From the NCBI GenBank assembly GCA_965276965.1, contig OZ255713.1, forward strand, positions 3,418,650 to 3,442,649: a stretch of DNA of 24,000 bases. The letters run 5' to 3'. Under the pieces are notes generated by a model. That model saw nothing but the letters and a program-made list of their open reading frames with translations. It searched no databases and was not told the origin of the DNA. Below are positions 6,005-22,705 of the stretch, one piece after another (the first letter of the stretch is position 1; every line of letters begins with the position of its first letter). A program made the position numbers and the translations under genes. The DNA comes from Bryobacteraceae bacterium. Lineage in GTDB: Bacteria > Acidobacteriota > Terriglobia > Bryobacterales > Bryobacteraceae.

Positions 6005-6295
6005 GTTTGGGGCTCCAGGCTGCACGAGGTTCCGTGCTAGCGGTTGCGATTTTCCCGAATTCTCATTATGTCCAGGCCTCGGCGACCTGCTACACGCAGT
6101 CGCAAACCTATGCCGGGGATCTCAGGACGATGAACTCGTCTATGCGCGAAAGATGGTCGAACTACTGGTTGACGGCTTGCGTTACGGAGCGAGTACGCGA
6201 ATCGACAAGCCCTAAAAGCCGACTTGAACGAAGCCGAAGCGGCAGACGCTACGCGTGGGCGTTCCAAGCGGCGATGTGGAAACTGGGATAGTGTC

Positions 6296-6321
6296 GGGTC
6301 ACAAGGAGGTCCTTGTGACCC
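6296..6321 (+). promoter_or_regulatory. Perfect hairpin GGGTCACAAGG-AGGT-CCTTGTGACCC that encloses the AAGGAGG RBS and the GTG start of the IS recombinase gene
   Basis: An 11-bp (formally 12-bp) perfect inverted repeat is read directly. The RBS (6303-6309) is in the left arm and loop, and the GTG (6315-6317) is in the right arm. The homologous position in the decayed copy (11658-11683) keeps only 8 outer pairs. Confidence 0.5.
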
Positions 6322-7193
6322 AGCTTAGAAAGATGATGCTCGAAGAACTCGAGCGTCGGAATTACTCTCAGAGTACTGTACGCACGTACGTCAAAACGAT
6401 TGCCGACCTGGCGCGCTATTTCAAACGTCCACCGGATCAACTCGGCCCAGACCAACTTCGCCAATATCAGGCCTACCTATTCCGCGAGCGCAAACTGGCT
6501 GCCAACACAGTCAACCAGCGAACTGCTGCGCTTCGATTCTTCTTCGTGACGACGCTGAAGAAACCCTGGACCATTGCTGAAACACCCTACCCGCGAAAGA
6601 CGTTTCGACTGCCCAAAGTCCTCAGCGTGGAGCAGGTATCGAAACTGATCGATGCCGCTCCCACTCTCTTCTACCGCATTCTCTTGATGACCCTGTACGC
6701 GACTGGATTGCGGCGTGCTGAACTGGCGCACTTAAAAATGCCGGACATTGATAGTGAACGGATGTTGATTCACGTCAAAGGCGGAAAAGGCCGCAAAGAT
6801 CGCGATGTCATGCTCAGTCCGATCCTCCTGGAGGAGCTTCGGACTTACGTGCGCGGACTTCGAAGGAAACCGGACGTCTGGTTATTTCCCGGCAACCGTT
6901 GGCACACCGGCAAAATGCCGATCAGCACGAAGGTGATTTGGTCGGCCTGCCGACAGGCTGCGACACGTGCGGGGCTCGGAGATGAGATCCATCCCCACAC
7001 GCTTCGGCACTGCTTCGCGACTCATTTGCTCGAGTCAGGCGCCGATCTTCGCACCATCCAACTGCTGCTCGGGCATCGCGATCTGGAAGAGACCACGCTG
7101 TACCTGCATCTTTCCAATGCTCGAATGAGTGCTACAGCCAGTCCTCTGGACAAGCTGAAGTTAGCCGCCTTTCTCGCGCAAGACGACGAATAG
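6315..7193 (+). CDS. Tyrosine recombinase (phage-integrase family) encoded within the IS, 292 aa
   Basis: Track ORF 6255..7193. I prefer GTG 6315, which lies 5 nt after AAGGAGG. Catalytic signature residues are visible: ATGLRRAEL (Arg), HTLRHCFATHLL (HxxR) and LLGHRDLEETTLYLH (His, Tyr). The stop TAG abuts the transposase ATG (TAGATG). Confidence 0.85.
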   Translation: MTQLRKMMLEELERRNYSQSTVRTYVKTIADLARYFKRPPDQLGPDQLRQYQAYLFRERKLAANTVNQRTAALRFFFVTTLKKPWTIAETPYPRKTFRLPKVLSVEQVSKLIDAAPTLFYRILLMTLYATGLRRAELAHLKMPDIDSERMLIHVKGGKGRKDRDVMLSPILLEELRTYVRGLRRKPDVWLFPGNRWHTGKMPISTKVIWSACRQAATRAGLGDEIHPHTLRHCFATHLLESGADLRTIQLLLGHRDLEETTLYLHLSNARMSATASPLDKLKLAAFLAQDDE

Positions 7194-8390
7194 ATGAACC
7201 GGCCATCGCTTGAGATGGCCGATGTCGTTCGCAGTGCGGGCCGGAACTTCATCGAACGAAATCGTTCCTGGCTGAACCGGCTCCACTTAAAAGTGTTGAC
7301 AGCCATCGAGCGCTGCCGCACCGCTGCGCTCGGCGGTCATCTCGATAAGTGTGTGCGCTGTGGACATCATGCCATCTCATTCAACTCCTGCAGGAACAGG
7401 CACTGCCCCAAGTGTCAGGCGAACGCTCGCGATCATTGGCTAGCAGCCCGCCAACGCGAACTTCTGCCGACACGATACGCGCATGTTGTTTTCACTCTGC
7501 CGCATGAACTGGCGCCACTCGCTTTGCAGAATAAGAAAGTGGTTTACGACTTACTCTTTCGAATCAGCGCCGAGACATTACTTGAGGTCGCTCGCGATCC
7601 GCAGCATCTCGGCGCGGACATTGGCTTCTTCAGTGTGCTGCATAGTTGGAATCAGAAACTCCAACATCATCCCCACATTCACTGCATCGTTCCGGCCGGC
7701 GGATTAGCGCCCGATCGCACCCATTGGATACCGTGCCAGCAAAAGTTCTTCCTTCCAGTCGGCGTGTTGGCCGAAGTCTTTCGTGGCAAGTTCACCGAAG
7801 CGCTGAAGGAAACTTTCGCAGGCAACAAACTCGGGTTTCATGGGTCCATGAAGCCACTCGGACGGCCCAAAGTCTTCGCGCAACTAGTACGACAGACCTT
7901 TCGTAAGAAGTGGGTTGTTTATGCGAAACGGCCGTTTGGCGGCGCGGAACACGCCCTCCGTTATCTCGGCTGCTATACCCATCGAGTCGCTATCTCGAAT
8001 CCTCGGCTTGTCGCGTTTGCCGACGATCAAGTGACTTTCCGTTGGCGCGATTCGGCACACCAGAACCAGCAGCGCCTCATGACTCTGCACGTTAACGAGT
8101 TCTTGCGACGCTTCCTGTTGCATGTCCTGCCGCCACGCTTTGTGCGCATCCGCCACTTCGGCTTCCTCAGTACACGCAAACGCTCCACGCTTCTGCCGTT
8201 GTGTTTTCGTCTGCTGGGCGCAACCGCTGTGGTGCCGGAAAAGGCAGCTACAAGCACTGGGCGACAATCACAGCCGCGCGTGGCCTGGTTGTGCCCGCGC
8301 TGCCATGGGCCGATGATGATTCTGGAACGCTGGAGCGCTTTACAACTTCGCTTCCGCGCTCCTCCGCCACTCCACTCAACCGCGGCCTAA
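7194..8390 (+). CDS. tnpA: IS91-family HUH / Y2 transposase, 398 aa
   Basis: The N-terminal zinc-binding cluster is CVRCGHHAISFNSCRNRHCPKC. The HUH motif is HHPHIHC and the two-tyrosine motif is ALRYLGCYTHRVAISN. A C-terminal CPRC is present. The start codon directly follows the recombinase stop. Confidence 0.9.
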   Translation: MNRPSLEMADVVRSAGRNFIERNRSWLNRLHLKVLTAIERCRTAALGGHLDKCVRCGHHAISFNSCRNRHCPKCQANARDHWLAARQRELLPTRYAHVVFTLPHELAPLALQNKKVVYDLLFRISAETLLEVARDPQHLGADIGFFSVLHSWNQKLQHHPHIHCIVPAGGLAPDRTHWIPCQQKFFLPVGVLAEVFRGKFTEALKETFAGNKLGFHGSMKPLGRPKVFAQLVRQTFRKKWVVYAKRPFGGAEHALRYLGCYTHRVAISNPRLVAFADDQVTFRWRDSAHQNQQRLMTLHVNEFLRRFLLHVLPPRFVRIRHFGFLSTRKRSTLLPLCFRLLGATAVVPEKAATSTGRQSQPRVAWLCPRCHGPMMILERWSALQLRFRAPPPLHSTAA

Positions 8391-10253: not shown

Positions 10254-11160
10254 TTAGGCCGCGGTTGGGTTGAGAACCGGAGGAGAGCGGAAGCGAAGTT
10301 GGGAAGCGGTCCATCGTTCCAGAATCAGCATTGGTCCATCGCAGTGAGGACATAGCCAAGTGACACGCTGGTGTGGTTGACGATTAGTGCTCGTAAGGGC
10401 TGCTGATGGCTGGGCAGCTGTTGCACCAAGCAGACGGAAACACGAAGGCAACAGCGTGGAGCGATTGCGTGTGCTGAGGAATCCAAAGTGACGGATGCGT
10501 ACAAACCGAGGAGGTAGAACGTGCAACAGGAAGCGTCGTAAGAACTCATGGACGTGCAGAGTCATGAGCCGTTTCTTGTTATGGTGTGCCGAATCGCGCC
10601 AGCGGAAAGTCACTTGATCATCGGCAAACGACACCAGTCGATGATTCGAGATAGCAACTCGATGCGTGTAGCATCTGAGATAACGGAGGGCCTGTTCCGG
10701 TCCTCCAAACGGCCGTTTCGAATAGACCACCCACTTCTTACGAAAGGTCTGCCGTATGAGTTGCGCGAAGAGCTTGGGCCGTTCGAGTGGTTTCAGCGAA
10801 CCGTGGAACCCGAGTTCGCCGCGAGTAAATGCTTCCTTCAACGCTTCAGTGAACTTGGCGCGAAAGACTTCTGCCAACACGCCGACCGGAAGGAAGAATT
10901 TCTGCTGGGAGGGGACCCAACGGGTGCGATCCAGCGATAGCCCGCCAGCCGGCACAACACAATGGATATGGGGATGATGTTCGAGCTTCTGATTCCAACT
11001 ATGCAGCACACTGAAGAAGCCTATGTCTGCTCCCAAGTGCTGCGGATCGCGAGCGATCTCGAGCAGTGTCTCGGCGCTGAGCCGAAAGAGTAAGTCGTAA
11101 ACCACTCGTTTATTCTGCAAAGCAAGCGGCGCCAGTTCATGTGGCAGAGTGAAAACGACG
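10254..11160 (-). pseudogene. IS91-family transposase remnant lacking the N-terminal ~100 aa (zinc-binding domain)
   Basis: Track ORF 10254..11120 aligns with residues from ...FTLPHELAPLALQNK onward of the intact transposase, and the HUH (HHPHIHC) and Y2 (ALRYLRCYTHR) motifs are retained. Homology extends upstream to ~11160, where it meets recombinase sequence out of frame. Confidence 0.85.
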
Positions 11161-11664
11161 GGCTAAGCATGACATCGCGGTCTTTGCGGCCCTTCCCACC
11201 TTTGACGTGAATGACCATGCGTTCTTTGTCGATGTCGCTCACTCTTACAATGCGCCAACTCAGCGCGCCGCAATCCGGTCGCGTAGAGCGTCATCAAAAG
11301 GACCCGGTAGAAAAGCGTCGGAGCCGCGTCGATCAGTCTGGAGACTTGCTCGGTACTGAGGATCTTGGGCAGACGGAAAGTCTTCCGTGGATAGGGCGTC
11401 TCGGCGATGCCCCACGGCTTCCGCAGCGTGGCCACAAAAAAACCGTAGTGCGGCGGTTCGCTGAATCATGGTGTTCGGAGCCAGTTTTCGTTCGCGGAAC
11501 AAATACGCCTGGTATTGGCGAAGCTGGTCTGGGCCGAGTTGATTCGGTGGACGCTTGAAATAACGCGCCAGATCTTCGATCGTTTTCACATAAGCGCGTA
11601 CCGTACTCTAAGAGTAATTGCGACGCTCGAGTTCCTCGAGCATCATTTTTCTGAGATGGGTCAC
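11161..11664 (-). pseudogene. IS tyrosine recombinase remnant (nonsense mutation, at least 2 frameshifts, 3' deletion)
   Basis: Reading from GTG (comp. 11662-11664) gives VTHLRKMMLEELERRNYS*, with TAG (comp. 11608-11610) where copy 1 has CAG. There is a frameshift at an A/T homopolymer run (~11441-11447) and another near ~11245. The gene ends at ...KDRDVMLSP at the deletion junction, so the HxxR and Tyr motifs are lost. Confidence 0.85.
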
Positions 11665-12680: not shown

Positions 12681-15600
12681 TCAAGGACGTTTTCTGTTGT
12701 AGCGGTTAAGCGCGCCGGGGGTGGGGACATTGTCGGTAACCTGCGCCCCGATCGCATGCGCCCGTGTTAAGGCAAAGGCGAGCGTGATGCCGGTACCGGA
12801 GACCTGTGCACCAGCAGTGTGTGCATGTTTCAGCGGCGCGGTGAGGGTGATTGAGGCGCCGCCGGATCTCCGAACGGATGCGATGACCGCGGTCTCAGAG
12901 TTTGTGTCACTGCCGATGGTGATGGTCTGGCCTTTGCGAAAGCCAGTCGCGCCGGCGACAGCCATCGCGGTCGCTCCTGCTTCGGTGGCTGTGTTCACGG
13001 TGGTCGCGCCCGCACTGCCGACCTTCGCGATGACGGCCCTCTCGAGGTTCACGCCCGTATCGATCATGATTTTCTGGCCAGCATTGAAGTCTTCCACGCT
13101 GTCAACACTGATGTTGGTTGCGCCGGCGCTTGAAGCGGCAGACAGAGTCGCAGCAGCCTGTGTTTGGAAATCATTGCAGTTGCTGTCGGTGTCAGCTCCG
13201 TCCGGGAAGCGGCCCGCGCTTGTGTTGGTGTCGGCCGCAGCTTCAGCGGGTGGCTCGTAGCTCATCAGCGCGCCTGGCGCAGGCACGTGGCAACCGCTCT
13301 GCTCCGATCCCGAGGTGCCTTGGTAGCCTTCGGCAGCCCACGGGTCAACCAGGCCGCCGTAATTGAGGCTGTCGACAACTAGGCCAGAAGTGTCCCGTAG
13401 CACCATGTTGCCTTCTCTAAAAGTGACGGCGGACCTCCCGAACAGGACCGCTTTGGTGATGAACTCGGGGCCCCCGAACCACTGATTGGGCGCCGGCTTG
13501 CCCTGGTAGCCGGCGGTCGTCACCTCGGCGTCACGGACGACCGCGTTGATGGGATGGGCGTTGGCCAGCGGCTTATCGAGCGTGATGCCGGCGCCGAGCG
13601 CCTGGACTGGTTCGTTACTCGAATGAGGGAAGGCTGTCGCCGGTGTGAAGCTGATTCCTGTTCCTCGATCGCTGAAGGGGAGGTTGGCCGCATGGCTAAA
13701 CTTCAGTGGCCTGGCGAGATCGAGGCCCGTGCCTGTAACCAGCGCATTCTCGCCATCAACATGCGCCGCGGCGAGGGCTGGCGTGAAGCGTAGACCGGCG
13801 CCGTTCGGCCCCGCAGTACCCACGGCGGTGATGGTGACGGTATTCTTGTTCGCCGGAGTGCCAATGGTCAGCTTGTCGCCGACCGCAAAGCCGTTCACGT
13901 TGCGGACTTTAATATTCGTCGCGCCGGCATTCGCATTTTCCAGCAACGTCGTGCGGCTCGTCGCCGCGCCCACGCGCGTGACCGTGACCGTGTCGATCCC
14001 ATGGCGGAGGCTGTCAATGTCGAGCCTAATCTTGTCGCCAACCGAGATGTTGGAAACGGACGTCACTTCGATATTCGTGGCGCCAGCAGCCGCATCCGCT
14101 CCCAGATAAGCTTGCGTGCCCTGCTTGCCGACCCCGGTGACGGTGGCCACCTCAACCTTCTCCTCGGCCTTTGCTACCGCCGGGTAAGTCGCGCCGTAGC
14201 CAATGGCAATCTTCTCGCCGACTGCGAAGCCCGATGCGCTCGTGACAGGCACGTTGGTCGACCCAACTGGAATCGTGATAACCGGACCATCGGGCAGCGG
14301 TTGCCAAAGTGTTGTATGGTTGCTGGCCGCCGTTCCGAGGCGTGCGATTTTGCGCGGCTCTGCCTTGACGCCGGCGCCGACGTAAACCGTGTCGCGCGCT
14401 GACATGCCTGTCGTGCTCCTGACGTAGATTGTGCTATCGCCTGTGCGCGCCGGCGCCACCAGTCCGGAGTTGGAAAGACCGAGCAGATAGAAGCCGCCAG
14501 CTGCGAGCTTCGTCCCAGCCGGAATTTTCACCGTCGAGAAGATCGCTTGTTGCGTTGGGTGCTCAGTCAAGGCCCAATTAGAGATGTCGACGCTATGGGC
14601 GCCGGTGTTGTAGAGCTCGATGAACGAGTCCGTCGGGTTAGCGGGAGAGCCCGAGCTAATACGAAACTCGTTGATTTTGACTGGGTGTACGTTGTGTACC
14701 TTTTCGGCCGTTGTCTCGAATTGCTTTTGGCCGCTGGTTGGGTTCGTCCACGAGGCTTTGCCCACCAGGTCGCCGTTGAAGGCCCGCAGCCCCGAAGTCA
14801 CTTTGAACGTGGCGCTCACGCTTTCACCTGGAGCAACCGGGTCAGCGAATGTCTTCGACGTCCCCTTCGCGCCCGCAACAAAAGAAGTCCACTCCTTGCC
14901 GGGCAAGGAAATGGTTAACCTCACGCCCGCCGCGGGCGCACCCGTTGTGTTCGTGAACTTCACAATAGTGTCTTGGGAAGACCCCGTTGAGAATGTCTGC
15001 AGTCCCGGCGGCGTTGCCGTTGCCGACGCAGGCGCCAGCGTAAGTGGCGCCACGTCGTACCTGGCGGCCACAATATTGGCCTGCACCAGTTGGTCGGTCG
15101 CGTCGGTCGGAAAGGTGTCCGCAGCTGTCATCGCGCCTTCGTAGAAAGTTCCTTGCGAGCTGTTGCTGTTGTCGCCGCCATTGCCGAGCAGAATGGCCCC
15201 TTGCTTTCGCATCGGGTCATAGGTGGCATTGACACGTGCTCCGTCGAACATCACGGATAGAACGCCCTTCTGCGCGTCGCCGCCCAGCGAGGTCCAGCGG
15301 TGCGGTTTGCCCTTGGCGATCGCGGTCACAAATCGCCACGTGATGCTCGGCAGATTGGGGCAGCCTTTGGATCCATCCAGGTTCACGCAGCCAACCAGAT
15401 TGTTCTCCTGGTCGGTCATAATCCACGGCCCCGAGCCACTCCCGCTAAACCACGGGGTCGCGTTGCCAAAGTAGGCGGTTTCCATTGTGCCGTTGTCATC
15501 GTCGCGGCTGTCGATCTCCGCGTTGCCGTAGTCGAAGCAGCAGCCGGAGTTGAAGTGATGGCCGTTCACCACCCAATACTGCCCCTCCGCCTGGTCGTCC

Positions 15601-16157
15601 ACTGCCGTACCTTTCACATCGTTCTGGCGCAGGCCCATGCCCGGCATGATGAAGACGCCATAAACCTTGTGGCCCATGATCGTAATCGGCGCGGTGTCAG
15701 CGAGCGGGAGATTGTTAAACCCACCTAAGGCCGGACCGCTGAATCCGCCGCGGGGCGCCTGTGTCAGATCGTTGTGCTTGGGAGACTGGTCGTAGATCCT
15801 GACGATCCAGCAATACGTCATGGCGCAGAACTTATCCTGCGCGGCTGCATCCGCGTATCCGCCCGTATCCGGATAAGGCGTCGCGGAAGGCTGAACGACA
15901 CCGATGTCCAAAGTCTTTCCGTCCGACTGACGGAGGACGTTGTAGAGCGGGCCGTTATAGGAGGCGTACAGCGCGCGTGTAGTACTGTGGGCCGCTACGC
16001 AGAGATCACCAGCGGCGGCGTAGATGTCACATGTACCTTTGGGCCTGGGCGGAGGAATATTAGGTCCCGCCCCAGCCTGTTTCGCCATCGCCAACGCCGG
16101 ACCCATCACAGTGAGCAACAGCGCGAGCACACGTACAAGACTGATTGTCGATTTCAT
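12681..16157 (-). CDS. Secreted multidomain glycoside hydrolase: GH54-type alpha-L-arabinofuranosidase catalytic domain + NEW3/NPCBM-associated-like domain + lamin-tail domain (LTD) + uncharacterised repeats, 1158 aa
   Basis: Track ORF 12681..16202, trimmed to MKSTISLVRVLALLLTVMGPALAMA (signal peptide). Residues ~57-385 (nt ~15048-16034) match the blocks I recall from Aspergillus AbfB: CDIY..AG..CVAAHSTTRALY, CCFDYGNAE, GPWIM.D.ENNL and GAILLGNGGDNSN..QGTFYEGAMT. The LTD hallmark is VKINEF...DSFIELYNTG..VDISNW.L....IPAGTKLAAGGFYLLG, followed much later by GNMVLRDTSGLVVDSLNYG and SAGRFPDGADTDSNCNDF. Confidence 0.85.
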   Translation of the reverse strand: MKSTISLVRVLALLLTVMGPALAMAKQAGAGPNIPPPRPKGTCDIYAAAGDLCVAAHSTTRALYASYNGPLYNVLRQSDGKTLDIGVVQPSATPYPDTGGYADAAAQDKFCAMTYCWIVRIYDQSPKHNDLTQAPRGGFSGPALGGFNNLPLADTAPITIMGHKVYGVFIMPGMGLRQNDVKGTAVDDQAEGQYWVVNGHHFNSGCCFDYGNAEIDSRDDDNGTMETAYFGNATPWFSGSGSGPWIMTDQENNLVGCVNLDGSKGCPNLPSITWRFVTAIAKGKPHRWTSLGGDAQKGVLSVMFDGARVNATYDPMRKQGAILLGNGGDNSNSSQGTFYEGAMTAADTFPTDATDQLVQANIVAARYDVAPLTLAPASATATPPGLQTFSTGSSQDTIVKFTNTTGAPAAGVRLTISLPGKEWTSFVAGAKGTSKTFADPVAPGESVSATFKVTSGLRAFNGDLVGKASWTNPTSGQKQFETTAEKVHNVHPVKINEFRISSGSPANPTDSFIELYNTGAHSVDISNWALTEHPTQQAIFSTVKIPAGTKLAAGGFYLLGLSNSGLVAPARTGDSTIYVRSTTGMSARDTVYVGAGVKAEPRKIARLGTAASNHTTLWQPLPDGPVITIPVGSTNVPVTSASGFAVGEKIAIGYGATYPAVAKAEEKVEVATVTGVGKQGTQAYLGADAAAGATNIEVTSVSNISVGDKIRLDIDSLRHGIDTVTVTRVGAATSRTTLLENANAGATNIKVRNVNGFAVGDKLTIGTPANKNTVTITAVGTAGPNGAGLRFTPALAAAHVDGENALVTGTGLDLARPLKFSHAANLPFSDRGTGISFTPATAFPHSSNEPVQALGAGITLDKPLANAHPINAVVRDAEVTTAGYQGKPAPNQWFGGPEFITKAVLFGRSAVTFREGNMVLRDTSGLVVDSLNYGGLVDPWAAEGYQGTSGSEQSGCHVPAPGALMSYEPPAEAAADTNTSAGRFPDGADTDSNCNDFQTQAAATLSAASSAGATNISVDSVEDFNAGQKIMIDTGVNLERAVIAKVGSAGATTVNTATEAGATAMAVAGATGFRKGQTITIGSDTNSETAVIASVRRSGGASITLTAPLKHAHTAGAQVSGTGITLAFALTRAHAIGAQVTDNVPTPGALNRYNRKRP

Positions 16158-16895
16158 GCTTATCCTGTCTGTCTGTCTTGCCGAATTTGTTTCGGCATCC
16201 AAAAGCGGCGGACTTTTATCCCAGCTTTAAGCCGTTTGGCTCTTTGGGCTTTTCTCCGAGAATCGTACACCACAGTTCTTTGACAATGTCTCCACTCTCT
16301 TTTAAGGCTGTGTTTCGGGAATATGTATACCGGCCCATCGTGCAATTCGGTGCGGTAGCAATCTGAAGCATAGGGAATTGCTATAGCTCACATTCCACTC
16401 AGGCGCGCTGACTACGAGATGGCAGGATGAGGCGTACACGGAATCACATCTGGCTTCAGCAATGCTTGCTGTGTCACATCCTTAATTCCGATCCGTAACG
16501 ATCCGTCGGTTGCCTTTGTTCAAAGGTTACAAATCCGGCTGCGATCTGATGACTTGTAAGCGACTTGGTTGGTCCGTAACTGACGACAATTGACGCATCA
16601 TGAAACAGGATTGATTTGCAAGCGGCTCTTAGGCCGCTCCTTCTCGGTGCTGCGGACAAAATTTAGAACACACCGGCTTGCAACGCTTAACTTGCTTGTC
16701 GGCGTCAGCCGTTTCCTTTCCCAGGCTCAGCAAAGCCTGAATGGTCGCCCGGAGAATGGCGTCCACACTGGCTTGGATCTGAGGCTTTTTCATTCAGTCA
16801 ACGGATACGCAACCAGGAGCAATTATTTTCGATTTCTTTCATCACCGCTGAAGCCAACTTAACTTGTCGCTAGAATCCAGCCAGGAAATGCCGAT

Positions 16896-17291
16896 ATGAA
16901 TTTTGCAATGGTAATAGAAACTTTCGATTCAACAGACATCGACAATGTGATGGCACGCATGAACACGGCCGAGATTGACAAGCTTGCCTTTGGCGCCGTT
17001 CAACTGGATCCCAAGGGAACAGTTCTGGCCTATAACGTTGCCGAAGGAGAGATTACGGGCCGCAATCCGAAAGATGTGATCGGCAAAAACTTCTTCAAAG
17101 ACGTCGCACCCTGCACCCGCAGCCCGAAGTTCGAGGGCTTATTCAAAGAGGGTGTTAAAGCGAAAAACCTGAGCGTTGTATTCGATTACACGTTCGACTA
17201 CAAAATGAAGCCGACGCAGGTGCGCGTCCAGATGAAAAAGGCGATATCCGGCGACACTTACTGGATCTTCGTCAAGCGGCTTGTACGGTAA
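16896..17291 (+). CDS. pyp: Photoactive yellow protein (PYP), stand-alone PAS photoreceptor, 131 aa
   Basis: It aligns over its full length with Halorhodospira halophila PYP as I recall it (roughly 60% identical by eye): [50 protein letters not shown]...[26 protein letters not shown]. The chromophore-pocket residues are conserved: Y46/E50/T54/R56 (= Y42/E46/T50/R52) and the chromophore Cys73 (= C69, codon 17112-17114). AGGAA lies upstream of the ATG. Confidence 0.93.
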
Positions 17292-17294
17292 GGC

Positions 17295-18446
17295 GTGCTC
17301 GATTTTGAACTACTGCCCGTGCTCTCCAGCCTGATAGCTGGAGAGCTTGCAGGCGCCAGAAGAATTTCGGCGCTCGATCCAATATTCCAGGAGCTTGAGC
17401 CGGAAACCGAGTTCGGCAAAGGCGCGCTGGGGACGGATTCGCTCGACCTTTTGAACCTGGCGGGTGCGATCACGGAGATGTTCCACCTCCATGAGACTGG
17501 GGTCGAAGAGTATCTGCTGCGCTACCGGACGCTGGAGAACTGGTGTGATATTGTGCGCGTTTCTCTTAACAAGAAGGCGGAACGAATCACGTTTCGAACA
17601 TCGGGCTCGACGGGCGCGCCTAAACGCTGCGCCCACTTGGTTGAACGACTCGAGGCAGAGGCGGTTGGGCATGCGGAGACATTATCGGGTTGCCGGCGCG
17701 TGCTGTCCATGGTGCCGACCCACCATATTTACGGATTTATCTGGGCCGCTCTGCTATCGGCCCAATTGCGGATTCCAGTATTGGATGCGCGCCGGTGGAC
17801 ACCTTCGCGTGTCGTGCGCGAAGCACGGGAGGGTGATCTGTTGGTAGGTGTGCCAGCGAATTGGCAATTGCTGGTACGCAACATCGATCTTGTCTCAGGC
17901 GGCATTCTGGGCGTCACATCCGGCGCGGTTTGCCCGGAGTCTCTCTTTGAAAGTGTGACCAGGGCCGGAATCGGATTTCGGGAAGTATATGGCTCGAGTG
18001 AGACTGCGGGCGTAGGGGTCCGTCATCAGGCAGGAGAGCCATTCAATCTGCTCCGGCACTGGCGCACTGGCGATCCGGAACTTTCACCTCCAGACCGGCT
18101 TGTATGGCAGACGGAACGGACGTTTTACGTTGGCGGACGAGAAGACGGGGCGGTGCAAGTGGCCGGAAAAAACGTCTTTCCAGCGCGAGTGGCGGAAGTA
18201 TTACGTTCCTTTCCGGGCATCGAAGAGTGCAGCGTCCGGATGACGCGCCCAGAAGAAGGCAATCGACTGAAGGCCTTCGTGGTGTGGCGTGCCGGCCACT
18301 TCGATCAGGAACGATCTGAGCGGGGTTTGCGGGATTGGCTCGCTTCACAATTGCAACCGCACGAGCAACCGGTGAGCTTCACTTTCGGTGCAGCGGCGCC
18401 GGTCAATGACATGAACAAATTCACAGATTGGACTATTGCGTGTTAG
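17295..18446 (+). CDS. pcl: p-hydroxycinnamate (4-coumarate) activating ligase of the PYP-activation type (compact adenylate-forming enzyme) with an N-terminal carrier-protein-like segment, 383 aa
   Basis: The GTG start is 3 nt after the pyp stop. Adenylate-forming motifs are present: FRTSGSTGAPK (P-loop-like A3), VYGSSETAG (A5), GGREDGAVQVAGKNVFPARVAEVL (A8) and a C-terminal Lys (DMNKF). Its size and its position between pyp and tal fit the PYP-associated pcl family. The N-terminal 1-88 contains ALGTDSLDLLNLAGAITEMF. Confidence 0.85.
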   Translation: MLDFELLPVLSSLIAGELAGARRISALDPIFQELEPETEFGKGALGTDSLDLLNLAGAITEMFHLHETGVEEYLLRYRTLENWCDIVRVSLNKKAERITFRTSGSTGAPKRCAHLVERLEAEAVGHAETLSGCRRVLSMVPTHHIYGFIWAALLSAQLRIPVLDARRWTPSRVVREAREGDLLVGVPANWQLLVRNIDLVSGGILGVTSGAVCPESLFESVTRAGIGFREVYGSSETAGVGVRHQAGEPFNLLRHWRTGDPELSPPDRLVWQTERTFYVGGREDGAVQVAGKNVFPARVAEVLRSFPGIEECSVRMTRPEEGNRLKAFVVWRAGHFDQERSERGLRDWLASQLQPHEQPVSFTFGAAAPVNDMNKFTDWTIAC

Positions 18447-20035
18447 CGGAGTTGGAAAGCAAGGTCCCGCCGGTTGCGCTTGGCTCGGCGGCCGAAGAGT
18501 TCGTCAAGCTGGAGCAGTTTGCCGAGGTCGCGAGCGGCACCCGTATCTTCGCGCTGTCACAAGGGTCATTGGACGCGATGAACCGGTCACGACGGCTGCT
18601 TGAGGACGCGGTGGAAGAGCGGCGTTTGATCTACGGCTTAACAACTGGATTTGGTCCGCTGGCGGGGCGATACATCAACATTGAGGACACCGAAGAGCTG
18701 CAACGCAACTTGGTGTATCATCTGGCGTCGGGAGTGGGCAGGCCTTTCAGCCCTTTGCAGACCCGGGCCATTATGGCCGCCCGAGCCATCAACCTCGCTA
18801 AGGGTCATTCCGGCATCCGGCCGCAAGCGGTGCAGTTGCTGCTGGATTGCCTGGAAGCGGACCTTTTGCCACTGATTCCGTGCATGGGAACGGTTGGAGC
18901 CAGCGGGGATCTTACGCCACTCGCGCACATGACGCTGGCGCTTTTTGGCGAAGGGGATGTGCTACTGAAGGGCGAGCGGATGAGCGCTTCGACCGCGTTT
19001 CGGCTTGCCGGGTTATCGCCATTGACGCCGGCTCATCGCGAAGCGCTGGCGTTGGTTAACGGTACGTCCGCAATGACGGCTGTCGCGGCTCTGAATGCAA
19101 TTGACGCGCAGCGAGCGCTGCAGGTGGCGCTTCGGTCTACGGTTCTTTATGCCGAACTGCTCGGCGGGAGGTTGGAAGCGTACCATCCGCACTTTGCGGC
19201 GGTCCGGCCGCATGCAGGTCAACAGTGGGCCACAGCGGAATTGCTCAGGCTATGTGCCGGTTCCAGGCGGCTTCAGCAATATGCGCCGAAGTTCCTGTCA
19301 GAAGGTACAGCCGGCGTACACGAACTGCCTCAGGACCCATATACGATCCGCTGTGCGCCGCAAATCTTCGGAGCAATTGCCGATGTCTTGCGATTCCATA
19401 ACGGCACGGTTGAAACGGAACTCAATTCGGTTACCGATAACCCGATTTTTGTGGAGGACGATGTACTGCACGGCGGGAACTTCTACGGACAGCACGTTGC
19501 GTTTGCTTCGGATGCGTTGATGACCGCGGTGGTTAAACTGGCGGTCCACAGTGAGCGAAAGATCGCACGAGTTACAGACGAGACACAGAACCGAGGGCTG
19601 CCGGCGTTCCTGCAGGGAAACCAGACGGGGCTCCACAGCGGGTTCATGGGGGCACAGGTGACGGCCTCTGCGATTGTTGCGGAGATGCGCACGAAGGCCG
19701 TTCCGGCATCTATCCAATCGATCCCCACAAATGCCAATAATCAGGACGTAGTCTCGATGGGCACGATCGCGGCAAGGCGGACCGCAGAGTTGATCGACTA
19801 CTTGTTTGATTTGCTAGCGATCGAAACTCTGGTGATGGTCCAGGGATTCGATATCTGCGGTGGCTTTCAGTCGGACGAATTCGCCGCTTCCTCTCAAGAT
19901 CTTGCCTGCCTGGTACGAAGCGTCTCAGCCTTCGTCAAGAAGGACCGGCCTCTATATGCAGATATTGCGCGCTTAAGCCAGCAACTAAGGACTTCTTTGA
20001 TTATTCCGGGCAATTGCGTGCAGGCTGACTTCTAA
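18428..20035 (+). CDS. tal: Tyrosine ammonia-lyase (HAL/PAL/TAL MIO-dependent family), ~531-535 aa
   Basis: The MIO-forming triad is in GTVGASGDLTPLAH (Ala-Ser-Gly codons 18899-18907). The His-Leu pair is in NLVYHLASGVG (18719-18724), at the position of the known TAL versus PAL selectivity switch. The length is typical of the aromatic ammonia-lyase family. The start is ambiguous: TTG 18428, or GTG 18440 overlapping the pcl stop (GTGTTAG). Either choice implies translational coupling. Confidence 0.88.
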   Translation: MDYCVLAELESKVPPVALGSAAEEFVKLEQFAEVASGTRIFALSQGSLDAMNRSRRLLEDAVEERRLIYGLTTGFGPLAGRYINIEDTEELQRNLVYHLASGVGRPFSPLQTRAIMAARAINLAKGHSGIRPQAVQLLLDCLEADLLPLIPCMGTVGASGDLTPLAHMTLALFGEGDVLLKGERMSASTAFRLAGLSPLTPAHREALALVNGTSAMTAVAALNAIDAQRALQVALRSTVLYAELLGGRLEAYHPHFAAVRPHAGQQWATAELLRLCAGSRRLQQYAPKFLSEGTAGVHELPQDPYTIRCAPQIFGAIADVLRFHNGTVETELNSVTDNPIFVEDDVLHGGNFYGQHVAFASDALMTAVVKLAVHSERKIARVTDETQNRGLPAFLQGNQTGLHSGFMGAQVTASAIVAEMRTKAVPASIQSIPTNANNQDVVSMGTIAARRTAELIDYLFDLLAIETLVMVQGFDICGGFQSDEFAASSQDLACLVRSVSAFVKKDRPLYADIARLSQQLRTSLIIPGNCVQADF

Positions 20036-20142
20036 CCGGGTCGGATGTGCCATCAAGGAGATAGATTTTCAAAACGCCATTCCCTGCAGTCTGCCATTAA
20101 CTCGCCGGACAGTGTCATTCTTGTGACCGTAGAGTGTAGTAA

Positions 20143-21781: not shown

Positions 21782-22705
21782 ATGACAACACCGATGAAGT
21801 ACACCGACCGCAAAGCATATGTCATCACGGGGCCGACCTCCGGCATCGGCCGTGCGACAGCATTTGAGGTAGCCAAACATGGGACCGTAGTCCTCGTCGG
21901 GCGCGATAGCGAAAAGCTCAGCGCACTGCAGAAAGCCATCCAGCAGCAGGGTGCATCGGCCGTTTCAGTCGTGTGTGACTTGTCGGCTATGGCGAGCGTA
22001 CGGCGTGCGGCCGCGGAGATCATCGCGTTGCGTCTTCCGATCGTGGGGTTGCTGAATAATGCTGGAATCTCTCCAATGCGCCCAGCGAAGAGCGCTCAAG
22101 GTTGGGATTTGACGTTCGCCACGAACCATCTCGGACCGTTCGCGTTGACCGAGGCGCTTGCACCGCACCTTCCTGACGGAGCAAACGTAGTGTTCGTCGC
22201 CTCCGCCGTGGAGGACCCCGAGCGCAAACCTGCCAAAGTTTTAGGAATGCGTGGCGGCCGCTATATATCTGCGGAAGCTAGTGCTCGTGGCGAGTGGGAA
22301 CAAGGCGGGTCTAAGCTGCCAGGTGCGGACGCCTACGCCACGTCAAAGCAGTCCATCCTTGCCGCCGCGTTGGCGTTTGCACACGCAACTCCCAGACTGC
22401 ACTTCAACGCTGTAGAGCCAGGAATAACTCCAGGGACCGGACTCGCGCGCGATGGGAATGTTGTCATACGGTTCCTGTTTGGCCAAGTGCTTACGTTGTT
22501 GCCTCCTTTCTCCAAATACAGGAGCACGCCACAGCGAGCCGCGCGGGTCATCACAAAGATACTGACGGATGAATCAGGAAAGTCCGGGGTCTACTACGAC
22601 GAAAAAGGCCGACCGATGCTCGGCTCCGCACTCGTGCGCGATTCGAAGTTCCAAGACCGTGTAGTGGCTGAGACCCGCGCTTTACTTGCTGCAAACCCTG
22701 GCTGA
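21782..22705 (+). CDS. Short-chain dehydrogenase/reductase (SDR), 307 aa
   Basis: GAGGAG RBS. Motifs present are ITGPTSGIGRATA (TGxxxGxG), NNAG and YATSKQ (YxxxK). Confidence 0.88.
   Translation: MTTPMKYTDRKAYVITGPTSGIGRATAFEVAKHGTVVLVGRDSEKLSALQKAIQQQGASAVSVVCDLSAMASVRRAAAEIIALRLPIVGLLNNAGISPMRPAKSAQGWDLTFATNHLGPFALTEALAPHLPDGANVVFVASAVEDPERKPAKVLGMRGGRYISAEASARGEWEQGGSKLPGADAYATSKQSILAAALAFAHATPRLHFNAVEPGITPGTGLARDGNVVIRFLFGQVLTLLPPFSKYRSTPQRAARVITKILTDESGKSGVYYDEKGRPMLGSALVRDSKFQDRVVAETRALLAANPG

Follow-up and report, generated by a model that had tools for sequence, protein, structure and literature searches.

The first operon described for photoactive yellow protein (PYP), that of Halorhodospira halophila, consists of pyp, pcl and tal, and the activities of its enzymes have been shown experimentally (PMC12826048). 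The PYP family has since grown from 14 to 140, 789 and then 984 members in about 10 phyla, most of them in non-phototrophs; most members belong to Pseudomonadota and 2.4% to Acidobacteriota, including Bryobacteraceae, Edaphobacter lichenicola, Terriglobus roseus and Terriglobales metagenome-assembled genomes (MAGs). Among functional pyp genes, at least 10% lie near a tyrosine ammonia-lyase (TAL) gene and at least 30% near a 4-coumarate--CoA ligase (pCL) gene (PMC9664959). Single-domain PYPs dominate and their downstream partner is in general undefined, and horizontal transfer has been invoked for the PYPs of Acidobacteria and of other sparsely populated phyla (PMC9664959). PYP is established in the non-phototrophs Idiomarina loihiensis, Salinibacter and Leptospira, and blue light reduces biofilm in I. 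loihiensis. Here we describe a pyp-pcl-tal unit in a 24-kb stretch of DNA from contig OZ255713.1 (hereafter the window, meaning the whole stretch that was analysed). We consider it highly probable (roughly 0.85) that positions ~16649-20040 are a self-sufficient PYP cassette, which a probable Terriglobia acidobacterium acquired horizontally and now holds in its chromosome.

A preliminary description of the window had presented the locus as a blue-light sensor in a heterotroph with an undefined partner. A non-phototrophic acidobacterial host is indeed probable, while the implied unusualness does not stand, given the identical operon of H. halophila and the 789-984 catalogued PYPs, most of which occur in non-phototrophs. 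Similarly, the statement that PYP output is essentially unknown beyond H. halophila phototaxis and the Ppr-type fusions has to be corrected, as biofilm control is known in I. loihiensis. The cassette and the scars that border it comprise the following features.

16598..16648, minus strand: scar, exonuclease 3' end; the last 16 codons (16601-16648, TEKER...NPVS) and the stop codon
16649..16907, plus strand: upstream part of the cassette, presumed promoter and 5' untranslated region, not homologous to the ancestral exonuclease locus
16908..17291, plus strand: pyp from the conserved start ATG 16908, 127 aa, with stop TAA at 17289-17291
16896-17291, plus strand: the pyp open reading frame (ORF) from the alternative upstream ATG 16896, 131 aa
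17295..18446, plus strand: pcl, short PYP-type 4-coumarate--CoA ligase, 383 aa, GTG start
18440..20035, plus strand: tal, tyrosine ammonia-lyase-type enzyme with a 4-methylideneimidazole-5-one (MIO) group, 531 aa from GTG 18440
20041..20072, minus strand: scar, exonuclease 5' end; the first ~9-10 codons (LKIYLLDGT, 20046-20072), 5 nt past the tal stop

The insertion can be read from comparison with related loci. In L033, whose Fpg protein is 95% identical to that of the window, a 5'-3' exonuclease gene is intact and divergent from fpg, and the exonuclease-fpg pair is also intact in the more distant L053 (Fpg 86% identical), so that this arrangement is the ancestral one. Homology between L033 and the window at 94% nucleotide identity begins only at 20041. 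On the other side of the cassette, window positions 16590-16649 align by blastn with L033 9035-9094 at 83%, which is the 3' end of the exonuclease gene. At the protein level (tblastn), the 3' scar pairs TEKERPKSRLQINPVS of the window with TEKERRPRRSQVNPVS of L033, and the 5' scar pairs LKIYLLDGT with LKIYLIDGT. A segment of ~3.4 kb (~16649-20040), containing the three genes and ~250 bp of upstream sequence, has replaced exonuclease codons ~11-279. The junction at the exonuclease scar is identical in an alignment with L001, a 293-kb ENA contig that encodes the window proteins at 96-100% identity and in the same core order, with other upstream insertion sequence (IS) content. The cassette is absent from the exonuclease locus in the closest relatives and, as judged from these alignments, arrived horizontally as a unit.

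The locus with the closest PYP (L034, 87% identity) supports the view that the three genes form the moving part. Its homology to the window is restricted to 16874-19977 (75.7% nucleotide identity), which corresponds to the three genes only, and its cassette is flanked by a type I restriction-modification system and by unrelated genes, which suggests placement in a variable or defence-island type region. Within L034 3368-9483, the pyp-pcl-tal cassette stands directly beside the complete restriction-modification system (hsdM, hsdS, hsdR). L033 and L034 were recovered from the same sample at coverages of 57.00x and 56.76x, and on the basis of the shared sample and matching coverage they probably belong to one genome. 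If so, a congener of the window's host holds the cassette at a different site. That a close relative has a diverged copy of the cassette at an unrelated location implies that the trio moves as a group and brings no partner gene along. The synonymous divergence of the cassette is saturated (dS 1.3-2.3), against 94% nucleotide identity in the flank, and this favours independent acquisitions over vertical descent.

With regard to the route of entry, the cassette ends show neither terminal direct or inverted repeats nor att-like sites, and the window contains no tRNA gene. A transposon or an integrase-att mechanism was considered and is unsupported without terminal repeats or a tRNA; illegitimate or homology-poor recombination is more likely. 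A plasmid search did not reveal a vehicle for the cassette, as all the PYPs that it returned are from Proteobacteria, on secondary replicons that are large and non-mobilizable. Specifically, the plasmid records NZ_CP049319.1, NZ_CP049159.1, NZ_CP014508.1, NZ_CP030128.1, and NZ_CP025613.1 carry Hhal-like (H. halophila-like) PYP genes with about 62% identity, some with up to four matching places each; these are secondary replicons of 0.29-1.0 Mb from Caballeronia, Burkholderia, Indioceanicola, and Niveispirillum, and are predicted to be non-mobilizable.

The receptor gene was correctly named in the preliminary description. Its product reaches 186.1 bits (E 2e-55) with the NCBIfam equivalog TIGR02373, for which the cut-off is 143.05, and only 47.3 bits with the generic Pfam PAS model (PF00989). 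Crystallised PYPs in the PDB match it end to end (E ~1e-53; residues 5-125 of the 125-aa chains), and its identity to H. halophila PYP is 63%. The residues that had been listed as tuning and anchoring the chromophore, Tyr42, Glu46, Thr50, Arg52, and Cys69 in H. halophila numbering, are all identical, as are the pocket residues Phe62, Val66, Ala67, Pro68, Phe96, and Met100; over 33 functional positions compared, the two proteins differ only by I31V and G86K. The thioester cysteine is encoded by TGC at 17112-17114, as previously stated, and aligns with Cys69 of H. halophila. With 127 or 131 aa in one domain, the protein agrees with the length expected of a PYP (~125 aa, including an N-terminal cap), and its end-to-end match agrees with the earlier view of a stand-alone receptor. 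The numbering is another matter. ATG 16908 is conserved in an alignment with the two nearest cassettes (L034 and L036) and ATG 16896 is not; with ATG 16908 taken as the start, the protein has 127 aa, H. halophila numbering applies, and the thioester cysteine, previously given as Cys73, is residue 69. An AGGAAA Shine-Dalgarno-like sequence is located 8 nt upstream of ATG 16896, whereas the conserved ATG 16908 has none; the choice between the two alters only four N-terminal residues and the numbering (Cys73 or Cys69).

PYPs of the Thr50 type absorb at 445 +/- 2.7 nm (PMC12826048). As Tyr42, Glu46, Thr50, and Arg52 all follow the H. halophila type, absorption by the holoprotein encoded in the window should, by analogy, lie near 445 nm. 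The nearest relatives of this PYP (72%-87% identity) are metagenome proteins. A scan of the GTDB species representatives returned no PYP above 67% identity, so that either the species is absent there or its representative lacks the cassette, and a scan of metagenome contigs returned relatives at 65% identity or less only, with the close clade not represented. Distinctive peptides of the window PYP were likewise not found in the accessible part of the sequence supplement to the 984-member PYP catalogue.

The second gene encodes a ligase for which the best NCBIfam model, by more than 200 bits, is the PYP-activation ligase TIGR02372, with a match that spans profile positions 11-384 of 386. Pfam recognises AMP-binding and AMP-binding_C, and the motifs TSGSTGAPK (TSGSTGxPK), YGSSET, and GRED (GRxD) are present together with the C-terminal catalytic Lys375; in an alignment of 22 PYP-linked ligases, these motifs and Lys375 are kept in at least 90%. 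No close solved structure was found for the ligase, and only its C-terminal subdomain matches other ANL enzymes (~1e-7). We file the protein as a diverged relative that is predicted to work like pCL, and not as a certified equivalog.

The third gene encodes an aromatic lyase (PF00221, 522 bits), for which the best solved relative is the Rhodobacter sphaeroides TAL (RsTAL, 2O6Y), matched nearly end to end at 396.7 bits. The ASG MIO triad and the His-Leu selectivity pair that were described earlier both align with this structure: codons 18899-18907 correspond to A149-S150-G151, and codons 18719-18724 to His89-Leu90, with VYHLASGVG in the window against VHHLASGVG in RsTAL. RsTAL Tyr60, Tyr300/Arg303, and Asn-Gln are aligned as well, and the structure of the H89F variant (2O78) scores below 2O6Y. 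Structures of histidine ammonia-lyases (HALs) and tyrosine aminomutases reach at most 281.7 bits (HAL-annotated 7tqr, 6v6h, and 1gkm: 281.7, 273.4, and 268.8 bits, respectively). The NCBIfam library holds no model for the PYP-linked TAL clade, and the available models remained below their cut-offs, namely the HAL models TIGR01225 (457.8 bits; cut-off 539.15) and NF006871 (477.8; cut-off 524), the tyrosine aminomutase (TAM) model TIGR03832 (389; cut-off 501), and the FlxA TAL model (378.7), with both BagA and FlxA cut-offs far above the scores of the lyase.

As the two HAL models give the best NCBIfam scores of the lyase (477.8 and 457.8 bits), it could be argued that the enzyme is a HAL of the hut pathway, that the 131-aa ORF is a generic PAS protein, and that its likeness to PYP is superficial. 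The lyase carries His-Leu and not the Ser-His of HALs, it fails the cut-offs of those same HAL models, it scores 397 bits to RsTAL against at most 282 to HAL-annotated entries, and neither hutU nor hutI is found nearby; moreover, the receptor scores 186 bits with TIGR02373 against 47 with PAS and holds the chromophore residues including Cys69. The generic-PAS reading of the PYP ORF is refuted by a PYP score far above that of PAS, and we regard the combined alternative as having a negligible probability.

It has also to be considered whether tal and pcl mainly feed p-coumaroyl-CoA to secondary metabolism (a type III polyketide, an aryl-polyene, or a flexirubin-like pigment), with the PAS protein as an accessory. 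Bacterial pairs of TAL and 4-coumarate ligase are reported to start flexirubin and naringenin pathways (PMC3992019, PMC4640377), and the lyase has its sub-threshold match of 378.7 bits to FlxA. The distance of the FlxA and BagA models from their cut-offs speaks against this, as do the membership of the ligase in the short PYP-linked clade and its coupling to pyp. In addition, no polyketide synthase, chalcone synthase, or polyene genes are present in the window, and what is conserved as a mobile unit comprises pyp, pcl, and tal with nothing further. Such a role is very improbable in our estimation, and we retain the reading of the locus as a PYP cassette.

The three genes are collinear on one strand with gaps of +3 nt and -7 nt. 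As the preliminary description had it, the ligase follows pyp after 3 nt (pyp stop at 17291, ligase GTG at 17295); this start is ATG in L034 and L036, and the stop-3 nt-start spacing is conserved. The lyase GTG 18440 overlaps the pcl stop by 7 nt (xTGTTAG), and the overlap is conserved with an ATG start in L034. The overlap of the lyase start with the ligase stop was thus rightly noted, whereas the start assigned there, TTG 18428, from which the frame is open (535 aa, 18428-20035), gives way to the conserved GTG 18440. Receptor, chromophore synthesis, and chromophore attachment were described as one translationally coupled unit; the junctions conserved in L034 and L036 agree with this and indicate that the three genes are translated together.

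The arrangement recurs elsewhere. In a sample of 30 species-representative genome loci, a homologous ligase (29%-42% identity) stands beside pyp in 18, directly downstream in 16 and upstream in 2 more, and a collinear pyp-pcl-tal is present in at least 7 of these 30 unrelated loci, in taxa that include Iodidimonas, Halomonas llamarensis, Vampirovibrionaceae, Acetobacteraceae, and Ectothiorhodospiraceae. The same order was seen in L003, L007, L008, L009, L010, L016, L018, L034, and L035. In L036 (6645-9464), a relative with 74%-75% identity, pyp-pcl is followed by a convergent gene of the CarboxypepD_reg/outer membrane beta-barrel type, homologous to one in L034, and not by tal, which means that this clade also has units without the lyase.

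Comparison of the window with L034 gives dN/dS values of 0.034 (pyp), 0.095 (pcl), and 0.089 (tal) at saturated dS, and strong purifying selection has therefore acted on each of the three genes. This result bears on the possibility that the cassette arrived recently and rides along as a selectively neutral passenger, intact, outside host signalling, and perhaps not expressed. A passenger of this kind would be consistent with the missing adjacent partner gene, with the finding of no recognisable promoter upstream of pyp, with a landing that destroyed another gene in an IS-rich rearranged region, and with the absence of the cassette from this locus in the closest relatives. The strong purifying selection across cassette copies stands in the way of this explanation, as do three intact ORFs with their catalytic residues and an insertion that was kept in two independent assemblies differing in nearby IS content; functional PYPs, furthermore, are normally single-domain and lack an adjacent partner (PMC9664959). 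We therefore consider neutrality unlikely and prefer a functional, horizontally acquired cassette.

Several points nevertheless weigh against the functional, self-sufficient cassette in a Terriglobia host, and they are collected here. The low dN/dS values cover the whole divergence history, including that in donors, and do not necessarily reflect selection in the present host. Expression of the cassette is predicted from its sequence, and in the 258 bp upstream of pyp a promoter and terminator scan gave no sigma-70-like site on the plus strand, an Rfam search gave no match, an alignment of six close cassettes gave no conserved motif, and folding gave no stable RNA structure (z = +0.89). The ligase score of 277.2 bits lies below the TIGR02372 equivalog cut-off of 334.7, the lyase reaches no curated NCBIfam cut-off (HAL, TAM, FlxA, BagA), and its sequence is compatible with lyase as well as with 2,3-aminomutase chemistry. 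The profile searches that had been proposed for the three proteins placed PYP above its cut-off, the ligase below that of TIGR02372, and the lyase below those of the HAL models. The single-genome link between L033 and L034 is drawn only from shared sample and coverage, and the host taxonomy from one gene (Fpg/Nei). Finally, no partner domain is fused to PYP or encoded in the 24-kb window according to Pfam, which makes the output a guess, and tblastn detected no MCP (methyl-accepting chemotaxis protein) or BLUF remnant in the window.

A mechanism can be proposed from characterised homologues (PMC12826048). TAL would use its MIO cofactor to deaminate L-tyrosine to trans-p-coumarate, and the short ANL-family ligase would adenylate p-coumarate and convert it to p-coumaroyl-CoA, from which Cys69 of apo-PYP would accept the acyl group as a thioester. 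Blue light would then isomerise the chromophore, Glu46 would protonate it, and PYP would enter the partly unfolded pB signalling state, with output through a protein encoded outside the window, in a genome of 6.9 Mb. Entry of the cassette cost the host codons ~11-279 of a dispensable 5'-3' exonuclease gene divergent from fpg/nei.

Our best guess for the output partner, made with low confidence by analogy with sister cassettes, is a soluble MCP-type chemoreceptor. In a sister subclade (L035, L050, and L051; PYP 71%-72% identical), an orthologous MCP gene lies divergent and directly upstream of pyp in all three loci (L035 6170-11415, L050 1519-5597, and L051 1785-4939). These MCPs share 47%-57% identity and appear soluble with only a weak PAS-like N-terminus, and L050 has two tandem copies. 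In L035, a BLUF gene comes right after tal, which places two different blue-light receptors in one cluster; in the 2025 PYP catalogue, Caballeronia sp. SBC2 is the sole case given of BLUF within a pyp operon. In L034, the relative with 87% identity, tblastn revealed no MCP or BLUF gene or remnant. It is possible, although we hold this tentatively and think it rather doubtful, that the bare trio is a horizontally mobile plug-and-play cassette that has entered Terriglobia several times independently, with holo-PYP docking onto pre-existing soluble chemoreceptors. If true, this would mean a blue-light tactic or avoidance response in non-phototrophic soil bacteria.

The flanks of the cassette were named earlier as a secreted arabinofuranosidase and a DNA glycosylase, and both assignments hold, to a GH54-type enzyme with a signal peptide and to Fpg/Nei, respectively. 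Upstream of the cassette, the window contains the following features.

12681-16202, minus strand: secreted 1173-aa protein, GH54-type arabinofuranosidase, upstream of pyp and divergent from it, with a signal peptide
6255-7193 and 7194-8390, plus strand: tyrosine recombinase followed by an IS91-family Y2 transposase with a zinc-binding domain
10254-11589, minus strand: second, inverted, decayed IS91 copy, in which the Y2_Tnp ORF (10254-11120) is N-terminally shortened and lacks the zinc-binding domain
11260-11589, minus strand: integrase SAM-domain fragment, part of the decayed second element

In the 1173-aa protein, a catalytic domain of the GH54-type alpha-L-arabinofuranosidase B family (PF09206, 405 bits), which is known mainly from fungi, is combined with a lamin-tail (LTD) domain and an NPCBM-associated domain; its signal peptide is visible from an internal Met (MKSTISLVRVLALLLTVMGPALAMA). 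Downstream of tal are genes for the Fpg/Nei glycosylase, a TetR regulator, a short-chain dehydrogenase/reductase (SDR), and a large BACON-type protein. Elsewhere the window contains genes for SDR, NmrA, and epimerase proteins, for LysR and TetR regulators, and for a SnoaL-like protein, as well as two elements that each combine an integrase with IS91 (Y2 transposase). These elements (6.2-11.6 kb) are more than 5 kb from the cassette, beyond the arabinofuranosidase gene, and we do not connect them with it. The two copies bracket ~1.9 kb without recognisable genes. L001 has a DDE_3/HTH insertion element at the IS91 site instead, and this difference indicates that IS content varies between strains. 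In agreement with the preliminary description, which had listed no kinase, GGDEF/EAL, chemotaxis, or photosynthesis gene, a Pfam scan gave no kinase, GGDEF/EAL, MCP, BLUF, or photosynthesis domain in any of the scanned ORFs of the window; no Rfam family was found in the window either.

The host is probably a non-phototrophic soil acidobacterium of the Terriglobia, as judged from its Fpg/Nei protein, for which all named relatives at 77%-86% identity belong to Acidobacteriota (Bryobacteraceae and Acidobacteriaceae MAGs, and Ca. Sulfotelmatobacter). In related loci, fpg/nei is surrounded by core genes such as TsaD, QueA, Sdh, TsaE, and MetH. In contrast, the best named relatives of the SDR (21782-22705, plus strand), at 72%-75%, are Mucilaginibacter (Bacteroidota) and a Firmicutes MAG and not Acidobacteriota, which points to cross-phylum exchange of an accessory gene and makes the SDR useless as a taxonomic marker. 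Terriglobia contain no known phototrophs, and Chloracidobacterium belongs to Blastocatellia, another class. Chloracidobacterium is the only known phototroph of Acidobacteriota (PMC5629043).

Compared with what has been described, the module represents no new type of system, and the window itself gives no handle on the question of PYP partners. The additions are modest: an insertion scar resolved at the base-pair level, the movement of a bare three-gene unit, and an MCP neighbour in the sister clade, once with BLUF. The cassette was caught with its insertion scars and thereby offers locus-level support, outside Proteobacteria and Myxococcota, for the published inference of horizontal transfer, and it indicates that the minimal transferred unit consists of receptor and chromophore synthesis without a signalling partner.

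The H. halophila operon has the same three genes in the same order and on one strand, with a stand-alone PYP of ~125 aa, a short PYP-type ligase, and a tyrosine-selective lyase. It differs in its host, a halophilic purple gammaproteobacterium as opposed to a probable acidobacterium, in that the window PYP is 63% identical to it and the window ligase stays under the equivalog cut-off, and in that the operon of the window is an inserted cassette with scars of a displaced gene. RsTAL shows considerable sequence divergence from the window lyase, whose activity is predicted. I. loihiensis, a deep-sea non-phototroph, resembles the present case in having a stand-alone Hhal-like PYP in a chemoheterotroph; there, however, a GGDEF protein encoded next to it has been proposed as its partner (PMC9664959), whereas the window has no GGDEF/EAL gene. 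Other PYPs of Acidobacteriota, in the Acidobacteriaceae MAG loci L028-L030 and in the Terriglobia of Data Set S4 (PMC12826048), come from the same phylum and are single-domain, but those of L028-L030 share only 42%-44% identity with the window PYP and are encoded without a neighbouring pcl or tal; being distant and without these genes, they argue that the window PYP is a separate Hhal-like introduction into the phylum. PYPs linked to MCPs are known from the neighbours of Leptospira clade B and from the MCP-PYP fusion of Nitrincola alkalilacustris, and they are paralleled by L035, L050, and L051 only and not by the window. The sister-clade MCPs look soluble, whereas those of Leptospira are described as transmembrane sensor-less receptors (PMC9664959), and the MCP neighbour of this sister clade, accompanied once by BLUF, provides a testable lead on the partners of single-domain PYPs.

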